DNA from: a virus
Virus genome (UHGV): UHGV-0393070
Length of the DNA stretch: 54,012 nt
Direction: 5' to 3' (one strand)
Within the stretch, counting starts at the first letter, position 1. The number at the start of each line of letters is the position of its first letter. This document shows, in pieces, positions 805-8,481 of the stretch. The position numbers and the translations under genes were made by a program. A model generated the notes under the pieces. It was not told the DNA's origin, did not search any database, and saw only the letters and a program-made list of their open reading frames with translations.

Positions 805-1320
805 TCATGCGACACCACTTTCGCTTGCGTCAAGGTCATCAAAAAGGCTCCAGTAACGAGACCAATCAGGCTGTTTGTAATCTTCGGTTTCCTCATCCCA
901 CTCGCCAAGAAATGGGTTTTCACATACCGAAGTGAGCCATAAACCAATAGCCGGGCACTCAGGTGAGCTTTCAAAAATTTCAGCAATGCGGGGCCAATGG
1001 TTTACATATTTATCATCAGCTGGGAAGTCAGTTAGGTATTTGCGAATGCAATCTGCTGCCAGCGAGTAATGCTCCTGCTTCACATACATACGGTCGTATG
1101 TCATAGCGAGGACAGCACGATGGTGATAGGGAATATCAAGGCGGTTAGCCAGGGGCCAAAGGCTATCTATTTTCATCGTGTACTGATGGGCCGGTAGACC
1201 AAGATATTTCATTGCCATGTCGTTCCAGATGACAGGGCCGCTTCCCCAGCCATTGCGGAGCTCTTCATCTTCTTCAGACTTCTCGCCCGGCCAAACTTTT
1301 ATAACTGTTGAATAACTCAC
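805..1320 (-). CDS. Hypothetical phage protein (171 aa)
   Basis: An ORF in the leftward operon that is acidic and Trp-rich. No motif recognised. Confidence 0.4.
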   Translation of the reverse strand: MSYSTVIKVWPGEKSEEDEELRNGWGSGPVIWNDMAMKYLGLPAHQYTMKIDSLWPLANRLDIPYHHRAVLAMTYDRMYVKQEHYSLAADCIRKYLTDFPADDKYVNHWPRIAEIFESSPECPAIGLWLTSVCENPFLGEWDEETEDYKQPDWSRYWSLFDDLDASESGVA

Positions 1321-1535
1321 GATTCCACTCCGAAGCGGCGATTAAGCCGACCTGTATATACGACGAACTCAAGGAAGCTAACTCCCAGAGCTTCAATTTT
1401 CTTGTGATGCTTGTTGATGATGGGAGGCACCGTTTCGTTCCAGTTAGGCTTTGGATTCTTGCGCATGGCCTGCTGGATTTCTTCGGTGCAGCGGCGGCAG
1501 GCTGCGCGGATGGCGTTGTCTTTTTCTGGTGTCAT
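1317..1535 (-). CDS. Hypothetical small phage protein (72 aa)
   Basis: It overlaps the upstream gene by 4 nt (translational coupling). Basic and Cys-containing; no motif recognised. Confidence 0.35.
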   Translation of the reverse strand: MTPEKDNAIRAACRRCTEEIQQAMRKNPKPNWNETVPPIINKHHKKIEALGVSFLEFVVYTGRLNRRFGVES

Positions 1536-1537
1536 GG

Positions 1538-3697
1538 TTAAATCCCCAAAGTGGCGACGATATCCTTCGCAGTCTCACGTGTGCTGCCCTTGCTGGATAT
1601 CGCCCGCCGGGCATCAACATGGTGAAGGGTGAATCCGTGTTGCTCATAAAGTTCAAGCACTCGTGGCGCTGTTGAGTTACTGATAAGAACTTTCGCGCCT
1701 CGCTGGTGGGCTGCTACACAGCTTTCCGCAAGTGAAATCTGATCAGCCCATGAGAAACCGCCTGCGGCGTAGTTTGTGAAGCCTGCGGTGCCGGGCAACG
1801 GCTCATACGGCGGGTCGCAGTAAACCACATCACCTTCACCGGCCAGCGCCAGGGTCCTGTGATATCCAGCATTCAGGAACACGCATTTATGCGACTTCTG
1901 CTTAAAAGCCTTTATCTCAATCTCTGGGAAATAGGGCGCTTCGTACTTGCCCCAGCCAACATTAAAGAAACCATCACGGTTGTAGCGAATCAGGCCGTTA
2001 AAGCAGTGTCGATTGAGGAAGAGAAAGGCTGCTGCGCGCTTCGGCGCGCCCATGCGCTGGTTATTAAACTCATCCCGAAGCTCTTTGTACGCCGCCTCAC
2101 TGTTGGCGCGCTCAAACAATATTTTGGCAAGCGAGCATACTCTGATGTGGTCAACTTCAAGCATCTGATAGAGGTTAATCAGATCTGCATTGACGTCAGC
2201 AAGCAGGAAAGATTCATGTTTTTCGGAGTTGAGAAATACCGAGCCGCCACCAACGAATGGCTCAACGAGGCGTTTACCGGCTGGGATCAGGCGATCCAGT
2301 TCCGGAAGCAGGGAATATTTCCCGCCAGCCCATTTCAGGAACGGGCGCTGCCAGTTGCGCGGTGCAGGCGCTTCGACTGGCAGCTCGGCGGCGATGCGCT
2401 CACCAATCCAGCGCATTACCGGTACTGCCATGCTATTGCCGATAGCTTTGTAGCGCAGCCCGTCTGGGCATTCATCAGCATCCTTCCCGCGCCAGCCGAT
2501 CAGAGTGTGATTATCAGGAAAGCCCTGAAGGCGCTCGCATTCGACAGGTGTAAGGCGACGGACAGCCATTAAGTCGTGAGTTACAGGTATATGGCCACCT
2601 CCAGAGCCCATTGCTTCGGTGAGAGTTGGGCAAATACCTACCTCTATCCCCGCTTTAGGGTGTTGCCCCCCTAAGATTCCAGGCTGAAGAAATAAAGCAT
2701 TTTCCTGCCCGTTATTTCGGCCCAGTGTGTGAGCAAGATTTTTTAAGGTGTCAGGATCTTGTGTTCTATGAACTGATATAACAGCTAGGTCAGTGGCATC
2801 CTTATAATCCCTCGCCTTAACTGTCGATGCAGTCTCATCATCAGCATATTCTCCAAATGCAGTCATTCGATATGCGCCTACAATTCCGCTACCTCTTTGA
2901 CTGAAAATCTCCTGATTACTTTGTCCGATTCCGCCGATGTTATGAGATTGGTTTAGGGTTGGATGTGGGTTTGTTGGGTCATCCCAGTGGCTACCGTTTT
3001 CAGCGCTTTTTCCAGCATTGACGGGAGGTTCCGTTTCCGATGTTCTGCTCGGCGCAGAATCCCGGCGCACGCTGTCGAGCTCAAATAATATTTTTGCAGG
3101 ATCGAATCCGTCACGAGCGCTTGCGACAACAAACACACGGCGGCGTCGTTGGGCCACTCCGAAAAATTGAGCATCAAGGACTCGCCAGGCGATAACCCTT
3201 TCTGGTCCAGACACACAACCTGCGTGCGTCCATTTTCCCCCTGCTGGCTGCAACTCACTGCTTTCTCCGGCAAGTCCTGCCAGAAAGCACCCGAAGGCAT
3301 TGTCTTTGCTGCTGAGCACGCCCGGGACGTTTTCCCAGACGATGATTGATTCTGGTTCACCGCGTTCGCGGCGCTTTGCGTCGATTGCATTGGCTAATTC
3401 CACGTAAGAGAGGGTTAACTGCCCGCGGTCATCAGACAGACCTTCGCGTAAGCCGGCGATGCTGAATGCCTGGCAAGGCGTGCCACCGACCAGAACATCA
3501 GGCGCTTCAACTTCACCAGCGCGTACCGCATCGGCGATTTTGGTCATGTCGCCAAGATTGGTTACTTTCGGCCAGTGATGGGCGAGGACAGCTGAGGGGA
3601 AGGCTTCGATCTCAGAGAACCAGGCAGGTTTCCAGCCAAGAGGTTCCCACGCTTTACTGGCAGCTTCGATGCCGCTGCACACGCTTCCGTATTTCAT
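1538..3697 (-). CDS. Fused DNA methyltransferase: N-terminal C5-cytosine MTase domain plus C-terminal Dam-like N6-adenine MTase domain
   Basis: The N-terminal ~440 aa carry C5-MTase motif I (GSVCSGIEAAS), motif IV (GGTPCQAFSIAG), motif VI (IIVWENVPGVLS) and C-terminal motifs (RRLTPVECERLQGFPD, GNSMAVPV). The C-terminal ~280 aa carry the D12/Dam signatures FLKWAGGK and VVYCDPPY (DPPY catalytic motif). The result is one 719-aa ORF. Confidence 0.85.
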   Translation of the reverse strand: MKYGSVCSGIEAASKAWEPLGWKPAWFSEIEAFPSAVLAHHWPKVTNLGDMTKIADAVRAGEVEAPDVLVGGTPCQAFSIAGLREGLSDDRGQLTLSYVELANAIDAKRRERGEPESIIVWENVPGVLSSKDNAFGCFLAGLAGESSELQPAGGKWTHAGCVSGPERVIAWRVLDAQFFGVAQRRRRVFVVASARDGFDPAKILFELDSVRRDSAPSRTSETEPPVNAGKSAENGSHWDDPTNPHPTLNQSHNIGGIGQSNQEIFSQRGSGIVGAYRMTAFGEYADDETASTVKARDYKDATDLAVISVHRTQDPDTLKNLAHTLGRNNGQENALFLQPGILGGQHPKAGIEVGICPTLTEAMGSGGGHIPVTHDLMAVRRLTPVECERLQGFPDNHTLIGWRGKDADECPDGLRYKAIGNSMAVPVMRWIGERIAAELPVEAPAPRNWQRPFLKWAGGKYSLLPELDRLIPAGKRLVEPFVGGGSVFLNSEKHESFLLADVNADLINLYQMLEVDHIRVCSLAKILFERANSEAAYKELRDEFNNQRMGAPKRAAAFLFLNRHCFNGLIRYNRDGFFNVGWGKYEAPYFPEIEIKAFKQKSHKCVFLNAGYHRTLALAGEGDVVYCDPPYEPLPGTAGFTNYAAGGFSWADQISLAESCVAAHQRGAKVLISNSTAPRVLELYEQHGFTLHHVDARRAISSKGSTRETAKDIVATLGI

Positions 3698-3858
3698 GAT
3701 GTACGCTCCGGATCGTTAACATCCCAGCCATTACGCTCAATATTGGTTTGCAGCCGCTTATCTCCGACCTCATCGATGCTGCGGCCGGTAATCTCAGCGA
3801 CTTCAGCGTTTGAGTGTCGCCACAGCAGCGCCAGCTCTTCGAGTGACCACGCTTTCAT
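3694..3858 (-). CDS. Small hypothetical protein (54 aa), translationally coupled on both sides
   Basis: [20 protein letters not shown].. ORF not in the supplied >=60 aa track. Its ATG overlaps the stop of the upstream gene (ATGA), and its TGA overlaps the ATG of the methyltransferase. Confidence 0.35.
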   Translation of the reverse strand: MKAWSLEELALLWRHSNAEVAEITGRSIDEVGDKRLQTNIERNGWDVNDPERTS

Positions 3859-4289
3859 AGCACTGACTCCATTTCGTCGATGTAGAGGCCCTGAGCAATC
3901 AGTCTGCTACGGCGTGCGGCACGTTCGATGCATTCCTGCCGCCTACCTTCCTGCGACTGCTCTATGGCGCGCCGGGTGAACAGGCGCGATTTACCCTGTG
4001 GTGTTACGACCTTAGGCTTCGTGACGAGGTCGAATGTCCGGTCACAGATGCCGTCCTCGTTAAGCCATTTATCAGACTCAACGATCTGCGCTATCTGTCC
4101 GGAGCCGCGGGTAATGCCGTTGGCAACCCGGTTAAACTCGATGAGCGTTACGCCAAACTTCTCAGCGATTTCGCTACCGGTTACCGGGCGGCCGCGCGTC
4201 TGAATCATCCAGATAACGCGTTCACGTAGGCCGGAGAATTGCCCGGTTCGCCCGGGCCGGCGGTAAAAGGGTGTGCGTTTCATTTCCAC
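3855..4289 (-). CDS. Hypothetical phage protein with possible HTH (144 aa)
   Basis: An ORF in the early-left operon. The segment [25 protein letters not shown] looks helix-turn-helix-like, and the C-terminus is Arg-rich. Confidence 0.4.
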
Positions 4290-4960
4290 TGTTCCCCGAA
4301 CGTGAAGCCGATCTCTGCCAGCGCCTCGTCCATCTTCTCAATGAACTCCGGCACCATTTCGTTGAAATCGGTCATGTACTGCGGATCCCGCTCAACGACG
4401 ACATGGTGAATGCCTTCGCGCTTCATGCGTGGGTCGTAGTTGGCAAAGAACCAGGCGTCTTTTCCGGTAACCCACATGCTGTACTGCACCTGGGCCATGT
4501 ACGCAGACTTGATGGCTTCGAAACCGCCAAGGCGGAATTTCATGAAATCGCGGGAGGTGAACGGGCATTTCAATTCGAGGCCGAAATCGTTACTGCAAAG
4601 GCCGTCAGGGGAGCACGCGGTGCGCATGCTCTCGTCACGGAACAAGATCGGAGACTCCGTGACTTTCACGTCAGTAGTGAACTCGAATAGCGTGCGGGCG
4701 TCCTCCTCGTACTGCTTGCCCCAGGCCAGCGCCTTGGCGTTAACCTCTGGCGCCACGCCTGTGCATACCTCGGCGAGCAAGGTGTGAAAGTAGGACATTT
4801 TCATGTCTGTCCACTTCTTCCCCGATCTTGGCTTGGCTATGACGTTATGCACTTCGGAGGCTGTGATAACGCCGAGGCGCAGCCGGTGCCACGCCTCATC
4901 GCCCTGTTGAATAGTGGTTACGTCAATACCGGTCCGGGCAAGGATAATTTCTGGTGTCAT
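4280..4960 (-). CDS. exo: Lambda-type exonuclease (Red-alpha, YqaJ-like recombination exonuclease)
   Basis: The 226-aa product is near-collinear with lambda Exo along its length ([14 protein letters not shown].., [57 protein letters not shown]). It sits upstream of bet as in lambda. Confidence 0.9.
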
Positions 4961-5817
4961 GCTGCCGCCTTAGCCCTTTTCTGAAGGAAGCCAAACCCTT
5001 TCTGCGCCTCTTCTTCAGTGAGTTCTGACGCCTCAAGAATTTGCCGTTTGAAGATGTCGCTGCACAGTGGGAGGAAGTCTTTCTCCCAGTCTTTATCCAG
5101 GGCTGTTAAGAGATCGGTGATCGCCTGGAGCGTTTCTTCGCTTGCTGCTGGTGGAAGTGATTCTGTTGTGCTGCGGGGAGTGACGTCACGGATATCAACA
5201 TCCAGTGATTTTCCTTCCATTTCTTCGGCGGTAGGCTGCTGTCCAATCTCAGGCCATGCCTTACGCAACGCCTGGGCTTCTGCGCATTTAGCCAGCTGGC
5301 CGTATGGGCGCTTTTTCCACATCGCGTTCGGCGCCGTGGTGTCGCGTCCGCCGGTGGCGTAGTTTTCAATCCAGTATTCTTTGGCGCTGAACTCGACGAT
5401 CTCTCCGCTGGGCATGCGCTTGTAGACGGTGTATTTGCACCACTGAGGGAAGGTTACCTCGACACCAGAAAGCGTCTGCGTCGTGTCTGGACCGAACTCT
5501 GGTTCGCGGGCACCGGCATAATCACCTGAGCGGTCCGCCTGAATGCGGTAAAGCCCGATGCCCGGCATTACCACGTCACGCCATTCGCTTTTACCCGTTC
5601 TTGAGTCTTTGACGCTCATCGGCACGAGGTGAACAGGCTTCAGCAACGGATCCAACTGGCGGGCACGGCAGTAATCGAGCGCCATCATTACCGATTCGTC
5701 TTTGGCGCCAGGGTAGATACTGTTCTTCAGCGCGCTCCAGGTAGCGACGTCGATACCTTTTTCCGCCAGCGCACTCGCCGTGATTGTTAATTCGTTTGCC
5801 ATCGTTAATCCCCTCAA
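4957..5817 (-). CDS. bet: Single-strand annealing recombinase (Bet/RecT family)
   Basis: It is adjacent to and coupled with exo. The C-terminal segment ([43 protein letters not shown]) resembles the lambda Bet C-terminus, and the N-terminal region is RecT-like. Confidence 0.8.
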
Positions 5818-5820
5818 TAA

Positions 5821-6108
5821 TTAAAACGGGCACCCGGTACGGTGTTCCCAGTCGTATTCCGCCTGGGCGTAAGCAACTGCCGAAATGAAATCGTTGTAGG
5901 CCTCGCCAGCTTTATCGCTGCGAAGCCCTTCGTATGGACTGGAGTCAATCGGGATCGTGAAGTGGAAGAGGCCGGACGGCTCTTTTGGCATCATGTCGAT
6001 GATTTTCTGCGCCCGGTCGTCGATCCACTTCTCTTTCTCGTCGTCGAGCTGCTGCTCAACCCAGCGCCGATCTTCGATGCGGTCGTAAGTGAGGTATGCG
6101 TTCATGGT
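5821..6108 (-). CDS. gam: Gam-like host nuclease (RecBCD) inhibitor
   Basis: From the internal Met (MNAYLTYDRIEDRRWVEQQLDDEKEK..) the sequence resembles lambda Gam ([22 protein letters not shown]..). Position immediately after bet matches lambda. The upstream in-frame extension to 6282 is probably not translated. Confidence 0.7.
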   Translation of the reverse strand, partial: TMNAYLTYDRIEDRRWVEQQLDDEKEKWIDDRAQKIIDMMPKEPSGLFHFTIPIDSSPYEGLRSDKAGEAYNDFISAVAYAQAEYDWEHRTGCPF

Positions 6109-6176
6109 TGAACTCCTGAAATTTGGATGTGCAGATCCCGCCCGCAGAAAGCCAGGCCGATCGGTTGAATAGGGGA

Positions 6177-6374
6177 TTAGTGCTGCGCGATGTCTTTCGC
6201 CGGGAACTCGCCGTTGCGGAGGATGCTTTCTACCGGCCAGCATTCCGCTGTTACTTTCTGCTCTGTAGCTGCCTGGCTGCATTCCTGCTGGCTGTCGTAA
6301 ACGCCGAGAATGACGTCCTGGTAATCACCGTTGGTCATTGCCACGGTCAGGACGAGCGCGAATAAAGTTTCCAT
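6177..6374 (-). CDS. Small hypothetical protein (65 aa) with hydrophobic N-terminus
   Basis: The METLFALVLTVAMTNGDY.. start overlaps the stop of the upstream small ORF (TGATG). It occupies the kil/cIII position of the lambda map. Confidence 0.4.
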   Translation of the reverse strand: METLFALVLTVAMTNGDYQDVILGVYDSQQECSQAATEQKVTAECWPVESILRNGEFPAKDIAQH

Positions 6375-6624: not shown

Positions 6625-6650
6625 AGCATTAAAAAACCCGCCGTAGCGGG
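6625..6650 (-). terminator. Rho-independent terminator
   Basis: Minus-strand sequence GACCCGCTACGGCGGGTTTTTT forms a perfect CCCGC/GCGGG stem followed by a T-run. It lies directly downstream of the leftward 6651..6995 gene. Confidence 0.7.
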
Positions 6651-6995
6651 TCATGACACTTTCTGTAGTGCTGATGTGCGTGGGTAGTAAAACTTTGGTT
6701 TCGCCGTCGACCCTTCCTTCGGATCAACTTTTACGGTGTAACGCGTTTGTTTTTTGTATTCCCACACTTCCGTAATCACACCAGTTTTCGTCTTCCAGCT
6801 GCCCGCGGCCTGGCTTGACCACGTAACAACATCTCCTTTCTTAAACTCCATCGCCTTACCCTCTGTAGTTACCCGCTGATGCGGGAGAAATGCTTTGGCG
6901 ATTGGATGGCCGGCGCTGATCTCCGGCTTACTGGTTAGAGCGCCCGCACTAACAGTGACTCTGTCTTGAGGCGCAGATTGGTTACTGCTTGCCAT
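6651..6995 (-). CDS. DUF2945-like small protein (KGDxVxW, beta-rich); may start at the internal Met at 6851
   Basis: The C-terminal 66 aa (MEFKKGDVVTWSSQAAGSWKTKTGVITEV.. YTVKVD) match the DUF2945 pattern. It is the first gene downstream of the OL/PL region. Confidence 0.45.
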   Translation of the reverse strand: MASSNQSAPQDRVTVSAGALTSKPEISAGHPIAKAFLPHQRVTTEGKAMEFKKGDVVTWSSQAAGSWKTKTGVITEVWEYKKQTRYTVKVDPKEGSTAKPKFYYPRTSALQKVS

Positions 6996-7453: not shown

Positions 7454-8131
7454 TTATGGGATATTCAGTATCTTGGCGTCGACCACAACACCGATGATTT
7501 TGCAGTTTCCATTAACCTCAATCATTGGATATGAGGGGTTAAGGGGCTTAAGGAAGCGCCTGCCTGCATCGATTACAAGCTTCTTAAAGGTCGCTTCGTT
7601 ATCGCCATCCAGCTTTGCCACAACCAACTTCCCGTTGCGCGGCTCGACTTCGGGATCCACCAATATGGCAGCACCTTCTGGAATGCTTAGGCCGGCAGGA
7701 GAGGTCATTGAGTCCCCTTTAACATCGAGCCAGAATGAATCTTCTGAACAGATAACAGTCGTGTCATACCAGCGATCAATCGCTCTTCGGTGATAAGGTT
7801 CTACAGCTTCCATCCATTGCCCCGCGCTTACCCAGCTGATTACAGGATAACTTCCTTTTGTTTCGTTGAGCCCCCGATATGAAACGTTCGAAGGTTCTTC
7901 ACTGGCGTGCAAAACATCCATCCAGCCAAAAGGCAGATCAAGCGCACTTTCAATTTTTCGAGCCATCTTATCGCCAATATTGCGATTAGGGTTTGGTCCC
8001 AGAAGCTGGCTAAGGGCTGCCGGACTTGTCTCAATGAGCTCGGCGAATTGCGCTTTGGTCATTCGAGACTCGTGCTGGCGCTTCTCATATAGCGCTTCTA
8101 GGTTGGACTTTCTGATTTCTTTATTTTCCAT
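7454..8131 (-). CDS. cI: CI-type prophage repressor (HTH_XRE plus S24 LexA-like peptidase domain)
   Basis: From MENKEIRKSNLEALYEKRQH.. there is an N-terminal HTH, then a C-terminal S24 autopeptidase region (WLDVKGDSMTSPAGLSIPEGAAILVDPEVEPRNGKLVVAKL). It is divergent from cro with the operator cluster between them. The annotated upstream extension to 8248 is unlikely. Confidence 0.85.
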   Translation of the reverse strand: MENKEIRKSNLEALYEKRQHESRMTKAQFAELIETSPAALSQLLGPNPNRNIGDKMARKIESALDLPFGWMDVLHASEEPSNVSYRGLNETKGSYPVISWVSAGQWMEAVEPYHRRAIDRWYDTTVICSEDSFWLDVKGDSMTSPAGLSIPEGAAILVDPEVEPRNGKLVVAKLDGDNEATFKKLVIDAGRRFLKPLNPSYPMIEVNGNCKIIGVVVDAKILNIP

Positions 8132-8148
8132 CCCTGCATTGTTACCGC

Positions 8149-8215
8149 TTTTAGCAAAATGATAAATGTGCAAATTGCTAAATGTTGCTTGCGTAGTATT
8201 TAGCATAACGCTAAA
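8149..8215. promoter_or_regulatory. Right operator region (OR1-3) with divergent PRM/PR promoters
   Basis: Three 17-bp sites: 8149..8165 TTTAGCAAAATGATAAA, 8166..8182 ATGTGCAAATTGCTAAA, and 8199..8215 TTTAGCATAACGCTAAA (perfect palindrome). They lie between divergent cI and cro and share the OL consensus. Confidence 0.65.
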
Positions 8216-8247
8216 CTCCAAATCAAACGACTCACCCGGAGACACCA

Positions 8248-8481
8248 ATGAGCAATGAACTACACCGCTGGCGCAAGGCAGCCACTACCGAAGAATGGGC
8301 TCAGCTCGCAAAGCTGGCTAACACCACGGCAGGTTATCTGGACCAGATCGCCTACGGAAATCGCCGGGCATCTCCAGAAATGGCATCTGCTATCGAGAAA
8401 GGCACGAAGAATTTTCACCACCAGGCTCCGGTCCTCAAGGAAAGCCTTGTATTCGCATCGCCGCGTGATACTGCGGCCTAA
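8248..8481 (+). CDS. cro: Cro-like HTH repressor
   Basis: A 77-aa protein with an HTH segment (EEWAQLAKLANTTAGYLDQIAYG), transcribed rightward from the operator region divergent from cI. Confidence 0.75.
   Translation: MSNELHRWRKAATTEEWAQLAKLANTTAGYLDQIAYGNRRASPEMASAIEKGTKNFHHQAPVLKESLVFASPRDTAA

Follow-up and report, generated by a model that had tools for sequence, protein, structure and literature searches.

Bacteriophage P1 encodes a fused DNA methyltransferase, Dmt (AAQ14041, 754 amino acids (aa)), in which a PF00145 domain is followed by a PF02086 domain in one polypeptide. The P1 GenBank record describes it as a 'bifunctional DNA methyltransferase' that modifies N6 of adenine in GATC 'and perhaps' C5 of cytosine. 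Since P1 packaging needs Dam methylation at pac, dmt is essential in Dam- hosts (PMC12707154, a review from 2025). Another arrangement has been described in phages of Bacillus, where tandem target-recognition domains (TRDs) on one C5-cytosine methyltransferase core provide several specificities (PMC8936443 and its references 45 and 56-59; PMC12707154). Here we analysed a methyltransferase gene in the virus genome UHGV-0393070, a stretch of 54,012 nucleotides which we call the window. According to the listing of open reading frames (ORFs), the gene spans 1538..3697 on the minus strand and encodes 719 aa from an ATG start without interruption. We consider it very likely that its product is a bifunctional orphan DNA methyltransferase of the P1 Dmt type, which would place both marks on phage DNA.

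The first-pass annotation, made from the sequence alone, had proposed that a C5-cytosine methyltransferase and a Dam-like N6-adenine methyltransferase follow each other in a single polypeptide, and the profile searches bore this out. Pfam placed PF00145 on residues 1-435 (E-value 2.8e-37) and PF02086 on residues 456-700 (3.4e-54). The NCBIfam models TIGR00675 (dcm) and TIGR00571 (dam) scored 129 bits against a cutoff of 100.65 and 253.3 bits against a cutoff of 114.85, respectively. PHROG 116, 'DNA methyltransferase', matched residues 1-718 as a single hit, which means that the fusion is already represented by a profile. The product name assigned by the NCBI Prokaryotic Genome Annotation Pipeline (PGAP) is 'Dam family site-specific DNA-(adenine-N6)-methyltransferase' alone. 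Because this name conceals the cytosine methylase half, such proteins will escape surveys of the 5-methylcytosine (m5C) potential of phages or bacteria that go by product name.

Next to these profile matches, the protein has full-length relatives. BLASTP aligned residues 3-717 with residues 6-753 of P1 Dmt (683 bits, 50% identity, 99% coverage), and tblastn against P1 gave one single aligned piece. The first-pass annotation had implied that such a fusion is novel. This part did not hold, since the fusion has the P1 Dmt architecture, has been on record since the annotation of the P1 genome and is widespread. When fused homologues were sought in a search of 5.8 billion proteins, both Pfam domains were found in one protein in all 120 of the best clusters. 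A HMMER search of 1.84 billion representatives returned 46,489 matches, 7,030 of them at E <1e-30, and among the 150 best clusters (50% identity) about 9 were C5-then-Dam fusions. Moreover, 319 plasmid records, mostly E. coli P1-like phage-plasmids, covered at least 80% of the query with the fusion, and prophage copies were present in RefSeq genomes of Enterobacter, Citrobacter, Salmonella and E. coli. The fusion is common in the prophages of these four genera and in P1-like plasmids.

The C5 half contains all the motifs that had been assigned to the first ~440 residues (I, IV, VI, IX and X), from residues 7-12 to 420-427. Together with motif VIII they stand in the canonical order, and a variable region separates VIII and IX (Table 1). 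The motif positions were checked by back-translation against the DNA. In the alignment with M.HhaI, motifs IV, VIII, IX and X matched residue for residue. The first-pass annotation had asked whether one domain might prove to have degenerate catalytic residues; alignments to M.HhaI and E. coli Dam showed intact motifs in both halves. Among 120 homologues, the catalytic Cys and CSGIEA are each kept in 119, WENVPG in 118 and DPPY in all, and the short signatures PCQ, ENV, QRRRR and GNS are each kept in 114-119. The ratio of nonsynonymous to synonymous substitution rates (dN/dS, Nei-Gojobori method) was 0.134 and 0.074 for two conserved parts of the C5 core compared with phage CobraSix. In the comparison with the E. 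coli CX21 prophage, the C5 core gave 0.056 and the Dam half 0.073. With dN/dS of 0.06-0.13, purifying selection acts on both halves. In one close homologue, P0047 (686 aa), motif IV reads GGTPSQAFS with Ser in place of the Cys, the sole case among the 120. Its C5 half may be inactive, or the substitution may be a sequencing error.

Between motifs VIII and IX, short modules are rapidly reshuffled on an almost invariant scaffold, and this is the less ordinary feature of the protein. Column conservation, computed on one representative per length class, was 0.92-1.0 outside query residues ~215-380, whereas inside it was 0.38-0.76 with many insertions. In proteins with at least 74% identity elsewhere, the segment from motif VIII to motif IX measured between 157 and 324 aa, and among 150 representatives the length of the variable region formed a continuum from 81 to 417 aa. 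Side-by-side comparison revealed that the variable segments are put together, mosaic-like, from blocks of 25-47 aa that occur repeatedly. Nearly all blocks consist of a hydrophobic strand, a loop, a (S/P/H/G)-T-(L/V/I)-x core, a second loop and a second hydrophobic strand. We defined 24 modules by hand and scored them by local alignment, counting as a match at least 55% of the self-score. The 123 proteins compared in this way carried 30 distinct module strings of 3-8 modules each. K-L-E-C-O was found in 28 proteins, A-M-H-J in 12, A-B-G in 8, A-B-D-C-H-I-F-J in 5, A-B-C-H in 3 and A-B-C-O in 1. The query string, A-B-C-N, occurred otherwise only in P0001, a protein 97% identical to the query. 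The modules are thus shuffled across relatives.

Some of these modules were also found outside the fused family. Stand-alone C5 methylases of Vibrio phages have a part with 78% identity to modules A and B, enzymes of Aeromonas phages match B-C-N at ~50% identity, and single modules recur in stand-alone C5 methyltransferases of Vibrio, Aeromonas and Morganella phages. The guanine-plus-cytosine (GC) content drops to 0.41-0.45 at window positions 2650-2950 (modules A to C), compared with 0.55-0.63 in the flanking core, which suggests that the recognition cassettes came from donors with a lower GC content. In the alignment with M.HhaI, the counterpart of module N was the TL loop in its TRD ('IAITLSAYGGG'). 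Similarity of the modules to the variable region of MtbP, the C5 methyltransferase of Bacillus phage SPbeta, was not significant beyond the TL core. The PTLT/GGGH core of module N gave a z score of 3.3, and module A gave an off-target match with a z score of 3.0. We dropped the prediction of target sequences from similarity to MtbP, since it offered only such matches with z of about 3.

The C-terminal half aligned end to end with the E. coli Dam structures (45% identity, E 2e-63). E. coli Dam (PDB 2g1p, 4rtj and others), DpnM (2dpm) and T4 Dam (1q0s) are homologous to it over its full length. In E. coli Dam numbering, it keeps the S-adenosylmethionine (AdoMet) residues F35, G37, G39 and D54 and the DPPY motif, as well as K9, W10, K14, N120, L122, R124, N126, N132 and Y138. 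They cover residues for AdoMet binding, catalysis and GATC contact, as assigned to the E. coli enzyme from Dam-DNA structures. The Dam half differs from E. coli Dam by Y119F, P134G, F135W and R137K, and at Y119F, P134G and R137K the residue of P1 Dmt is identical to that of the Dam half.

Concerning the class of this half, the first-pass annotation was right in part. It had described the last ~280 residues as a complete gamma-class adenine methyltransferase. The domain is complete, with the stretch from FLKWAGGK to DPPY intact, but the class has to be changed. In the gamma class, motif IV comes soon after the AdoMet motifs and the target-recognition domain is C-terminal to motif VIII. Here, ~140 aa with a Dam-like recognition region (the N120/L122/R124 loop) lie between FxGxG and DPPY, and this spacing equals that from F35 to D181 in E. 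coli Dam. Dam is the archetype of the alpha group in the class definitions reportedly given by Malone and colleagues in 1995. Judged by its motif order (X, I, recognition region, IV), the adenine methyltransferase half is an alpha-group and not a gamma-class enzyme. As a separate observation, GATC occurs 175 times in the window, compared with 219 +/- 12.6 expected from dinucleotide shuffles (about -3.5 standard deviations), a mild depletion despite the presence of a phage-encoded Dam-type enzyme. GATC avoidance was dropped as a functional clue, since a depletion this mild is uninformative.

From these parts we propose the following mode of action. Leftward early (pL-type) transcription on induction or infection would yield the fusion protein, and the gene would be silent in the lysogen. 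The C5 half would flip target cytosines and methylate their C5 through Cys75 of PCQ, with the participation of ENV and QRRRR, at one or more target sequences. The Dam half would use DPPY to make N6-methyladenine (m6A), most probably at the GATC sites. Replicated and packaged phage DNA would then carry both marks, and the most likely benefit is that progeny DNA would withstand restriction enzymes blocked by these methylations. Dam methylation may also aid the phage's own DNA transactions, be it replication, repair or packaging, and for packaging P1 provides the precedent. Protection against several restriction specificities, which the first-pass annotation had put forward, is plausible. In P1 Dmt, the one relative that has been studied, the documented role of the Dam activity is GATC methylation for packaging at pac.

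Several points weigh against the reading of a protein with two active halves that protects phage DNA. The C5 half has CSGIEA as its motif I in place of the canonical F-x-G-x-G-G, so that AdoMet binding by this half is assumed; MtbP of SPbeta, which is experimentally multispecific, has FSGIGA in this place. The C5 activity of P1 Dmt itself is annotated with just a 'perhaps', and our literature search, in which subscription papers were poorly covered, found no paper demonstrating m5C activity of P1 Dmt. An AlphaFold model of the full protein, built on a 33-sequence alignment, was unusable and gave no structural support (mean predicted local distance difference test score (pLDDT) 36.5, predicted template modelling score 0.33). 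This alignment was too shallow since every row was at least 81% identical. The Dam half missed NF008152, the NCBIfam equivalog of the host Dam (259.8 bits against a cutoff of 441). Judged by this score, it is a phage Dam-family enzyme and not an orthologue of the chromosomal Dam, and its predicted GATC specificity therefore rests on residue conservation and on the precedent of P1. Finally, 5-methylcytosine would make the phage DNA vulnerable to McrBC and other methyl-dependent nucleases (PMC2614495), and the net protection would thus depend on the host. Some of these points would suit a protein in which the Dam half alone is active and the C5 half has decayed or is purely DNA-binding, namely the non-canonical motif I and the wording of the P1 record, and so would the PGAP label of the whole family, which is just 'Dam family', and the Ser of P0047. 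However, we consider such a protein improbable, given the retention of PCQ, ENV, QRRRR and GNS in nearly all homologues and the low dN/dS of the C5 core. Turnover of recognition modules would make little sense in a dead enzyme, and many phages encode this scaffold on its own, in proteins annotated as cytosine methylases. That the single ORF results from a sequencing or assembly error joining two adjacent genes, a risk which the first-pass annotation had named, is exceedingly unlikely. In some relatives the two parts are separate or joined to other partners, phi80 carries just a Dam pseudogene at this position, and some E. coli genomes are annotated with adjacent genes for 'dcm' and 'phage N-6-adenine-methyltransferase'. 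Nevertheless, at least 24 independent contigs, drawn from different sequencing runs and samples, encode exactly this 719-aa protein, always with the same neighbours and at one position of the prophage, and its colinear architecture recurs in more than 100 clusters. No frameshift splits the domains, and the contigs together with the colinear clusters exclude an artefact of this kind. The linker has a fixed length, with motif IX and FLKWAGGK 73 aa apart in 106 of 117 homologues, and P1 Dmt has the identical architecture. E-values down to 1e-54 together with the full-length homologues likewise exclude chance.

Within the preferred reading of a bifunctional P1 Dmt-type enzyme, the number of cytosine targets is a question of refinement and not of replacement. 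It is a real though tentative possibility that most or all of modules A, B, C and N each steer the one core to a different target, so that the enzyme would make several m5C marks in addition to m6A at GATC. The Bacillus phage enzymes provide the precedent (PMC8936443; PMC12707154). Variation among close homologues is restricted to the segment between motifs VIII and IX, where the ~24 module types combine into the 30 strings (A-B-C-N, A-B-C-H, A-B-C-O and A-B-G among them). The match of module N to the TL loop of M.HhaI, the GC dip over the modules and the recurrence of single modules in stand-alone enzymes of other phages are consistent with the same idea. Moreover, the variable region is close in size to that of SPbeta MtbP (190 aa in the query and 184 aa in MtbP) and has a similar core (SPTLTTMGGGH in MtbP and CPTLTEAMGSGGGH in the query). 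On the other hand, the monospecific M.HhaI uses ~107 aa for the stretch from motif VIII to motif IX, and one TRD might therefore take two modules. Modules A and C are present almost throughout and might serve as scaffold and not as specificity elements. The similarity of the query modules to MtbP is weak, the AlphaFold model is of no help here, and inactive pseudo-TRDs occur in the Bacillus enzymes. It is also quite possible that the protein has one composite TRD and a single specificity, which changes when sub-segments are swapped between phages. Such an arrangement would fit the module size, which is about half of a TRD such as that of M.HhaI, the presence of three modules even in the shortest family members and the continuous range of variable-region lengths. 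It does not fit so well with a module number of 3-8 on an otherwise near-identical scaffold, or with whole modules being gained and lost while their neighbours are undisturbed (A-B-C-H and A-B-D-C-H-I-F-J; K-E-C-O and K-L-E-C-O). Independent units explain this gain and loss more easily than a composite TRD. We suggest only tentatively, and with some reserve, that every module determines a specificity of its own.

If this suggestion is extended to the whole group, the prophage family and the P1-like Dmt proteins may form a combinatorial cassette library in which 24 or more module types make up 30 or more architectures on near-identical scaffolds, each module having its own target. We regard this as possible but somewhat doubtful. 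Our literature search found no tandem-TRD module system described for enterobacterial phages, which is weak evidence of novelty in view of the poor coverage of subscription papers. If such a library exists, it would be the enterobacterial counterpart of the multispecific methylases of Bacillus phages, fused to Dam and sometimes to alternative C-terminal adenine methyltransferases, and module strings would predict the methylation repertoire and the anti-restriction range of a phage. The fusion as such matters little, since the protein is in this respect a routine member of the P1 Dmt kind. Modules that are autonomous TRDs would make these proteins compact multi-target protective methylases, with a bearing on the host range of phages, on phage therapy and on barriers to transduction in Enterobacteriaceae. 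They would also offer a natural toolkit for engineering the specificity of C5 methyltransferases.

The window comes from a lambdoid temperate phage whose nearest DNA relatives are among Klebsiella and Enterobacter phages. The first-pass annotation had placed the gene in the early-left operon. This is supported by the gene order, in which the CI-like repressor is followed by gam, RecT, the YqaJ-type exonuclease, two small ORFs and the methylase, while the cII, O-like, P-like and Q-like genes run rightward on the plus strand. By analogy with lambda, the operon is probably controlled by CI and antitermination. Stop and start codons overlap or abut throughout the leftward gene string. The overlap with the 54-aa upstream ORF, which had been noticed before, was confirmed as an ATGA read on the minus strand (ATCATGAAATA), where the TGA of the small ORF overlaps the methylase ATG. 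A GGAG lies 8 nucleotides upstream of this ATG. Given the overlap, the 54-aa ORF and the methylase are probably translationally coupled. The downstream 72-aa ORF begins 2 nucleotides past the methylase TAA, and the string continues past it with phrog_19610 and a DksA-like zinc-finger protein.

Terminator-like hairpins with T-runs at 6652-6635 and 789-773 of the minus strand bracket the string from gam to phrog_19610. Between them, from 6635 to 789 on the minus strand, we found no terminator of comparable quality. The hairpin at 6635-6652 lies just after a 114-aa ORF (6651-6995) and could be a tL1-like site that needs antitermination. In the promoter and terminator scan as a whole, the total number of sites was no higher than in shuffled sequence. 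In integrated copies the string continues to a dATP/dGTP pyrophosphohydrolase-like gene and then to Xis and Int, and the prophage abuts the host genes yebY, copD, copC, holE and exoX there (L004:10132-14160). The pyrophosphohydrolase-like gene (108 aa, PF04447, L004:9646-9972) stands between the methylase operon and xis/int; we did not locate a PF04447 gene of this kind in the window. That the integrase is encoded at the far end shows that the window and the prophage are circular permutations of each other.

Table 1. Features of the predicted fused methyltransferase gene and its neighbours in the window
Feature	Window positions	Strand	Residues	Remarks
Fused C5-cytosine/N6-adenine DNA methyltransferase (P1 Dmt type), predicted	1538..3697	(-)		719 aa; TAA stop at 1538-1540
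C5-cytosine methyltransferase half	2393..3697	(-)	1-435	Pfam PF00145, TIGR00675, M.HhaI alignment
C5 motif I, CSGIEA	3662-3679	(-)	7-12	
C5 motif IV, GGTPCQAFS	3461-3487	(-)	71-79	Predicted catalytic Cys75
C5 motif VI, WENVPG	3320-3337	(-)	121-126	
C5 motif VIII, QRRRRVF	3131-3151	(-)	183-189	
C5 recognition region	2570..2995	(-)	235-376	Four modules, each with an x-T-(L/V)-x core
Module A	2879-2995	(-)	235-273	
Module B	2780-2878	(-)	274-306	
Module C	2690-2770	(-)	310-336	
Module N	2570-2689	(-)	337-376	
C5 motif IX, RRLTPVECERLQGFP	2516-2560	(-)	380-394	
C5 motif X, GNSMAVPV	2417-2440	(-)	420-427	
Inter-domain linker	2342..2392	(-)	436-452	Length fixed across the family
Dam-type (D12 class, alpha-group) N6-adenine methyltransferase half	1541..2341	(-)	453-719	PF02086, TIGR00571
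FLKWAGGK	2318-2341	(-)	453-460	
EPFVGGGSVF	2234-2263	(-)	479-488	FVGGG at 481-485
DPPY	1805-1816	(-)	628-631	
CI-like repressor (S24 peptidase type)	7454..8248	(-)		Marks the immunity region; the leftward operon departs here
gam-like	5821-6282	(-)		
RecT	4957-5817	(-)		
YqaJ/lambda-type exonuclease	4280-4960	(-)		
phrog_1680	3855-4289	(-)		
Upstream 54-aa ORF, phrog_11492	3694..3858	(-)		DUF1317 family protein in RefSeq homologues
Downstream 72-aa ORF, phrog_303	1317..1535	(-)		Same transcription unit
Integrase	52252-53337	(-)		

Related phages carry variants of the gene in the same slot. In Enterobacter phage CobraSix, gp41 (YP_010675389, 637 aa; L002:2501-4414) has a C5 core ~95% identical to that of the query (205/215 residues) and sits between the same neighbours (gam, RecT, exo, a 144-aa ORF, a ~50-aa ORF, the methyltransferase and a 72-aa ORF). 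Its C-terminal partner, like that of P0127 and P0153, is the unrelated 'Dam' of PF05869, whereas the query has PF02086. The C-terminal adenine methyltransferase is thus exchangeable on the same C5 scaffold. The recognition string of CobraSix gp41 is K-E-C-F-P, which has module C in common with the query. The phi80 gene damL (L003:2474-3359) likewise occupies this slot and follows exo. It is a frameshifted pseudogene that consists of the Dam part alone, without a C5 domain, and shares 78% identity with the query's Dam half. The E. coli CX21 protein combines a C5 half with a D12 Dam and differs from the query in its recognition region. Other representatives have a ~220-aa C-terminal tail without a Pfam match, or no tail.

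A separate observation was an intein (Hint_2 with a LAGLIDADG homing endonuclease) at the motif IV catalytic cysteine of P0129, P0130 and P0249, at residues ~76-410, and probably also in P0169, P0220 and P0236. The window protein has none. We rejected the idea that the relatives of 1013-1148 aa are giant TRD arrays, since Pfam shows that the intein accounts for their length.

When compared with the best described systems, the window protein is closest to the Dmt proteins of P1 and of the P1-like phage-plasmids P7, RCS47, SJ46 and JL22, with which it shares the domain order and the catalytic motifs, including the unusual motif I (YGSVCSGIEAAS). P1 Dmt also shares module B, but its string is B-W-X whereas that of the query is A-B-C-N, and it has an extra 21 aa after motif VI and an extra 22 aa between motifs IX and X. 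The settings differ as well, since P1 dmt is a phage-plasmid gene in a C1-controlled operon with hrdC, while the window gene lies in a lambdoid pL operon. E. coli Dam, in contrast to the window protein, is not fused to a C5 methyltransferase. Like the enzymes of the Bacillus phages SPR, phi3T, rho11s, H2 and SPbeta, the window protein is phage-borne and orphan and has one C5 core with an enlarged region between motifs VIII and IX, in which short units show a P-T-L-T core. Unlike it, the Bacillus phage enzymes have no adenine methyltransferase fused to them, and it is in these enzymes that multispecificity has been shown experimentally.

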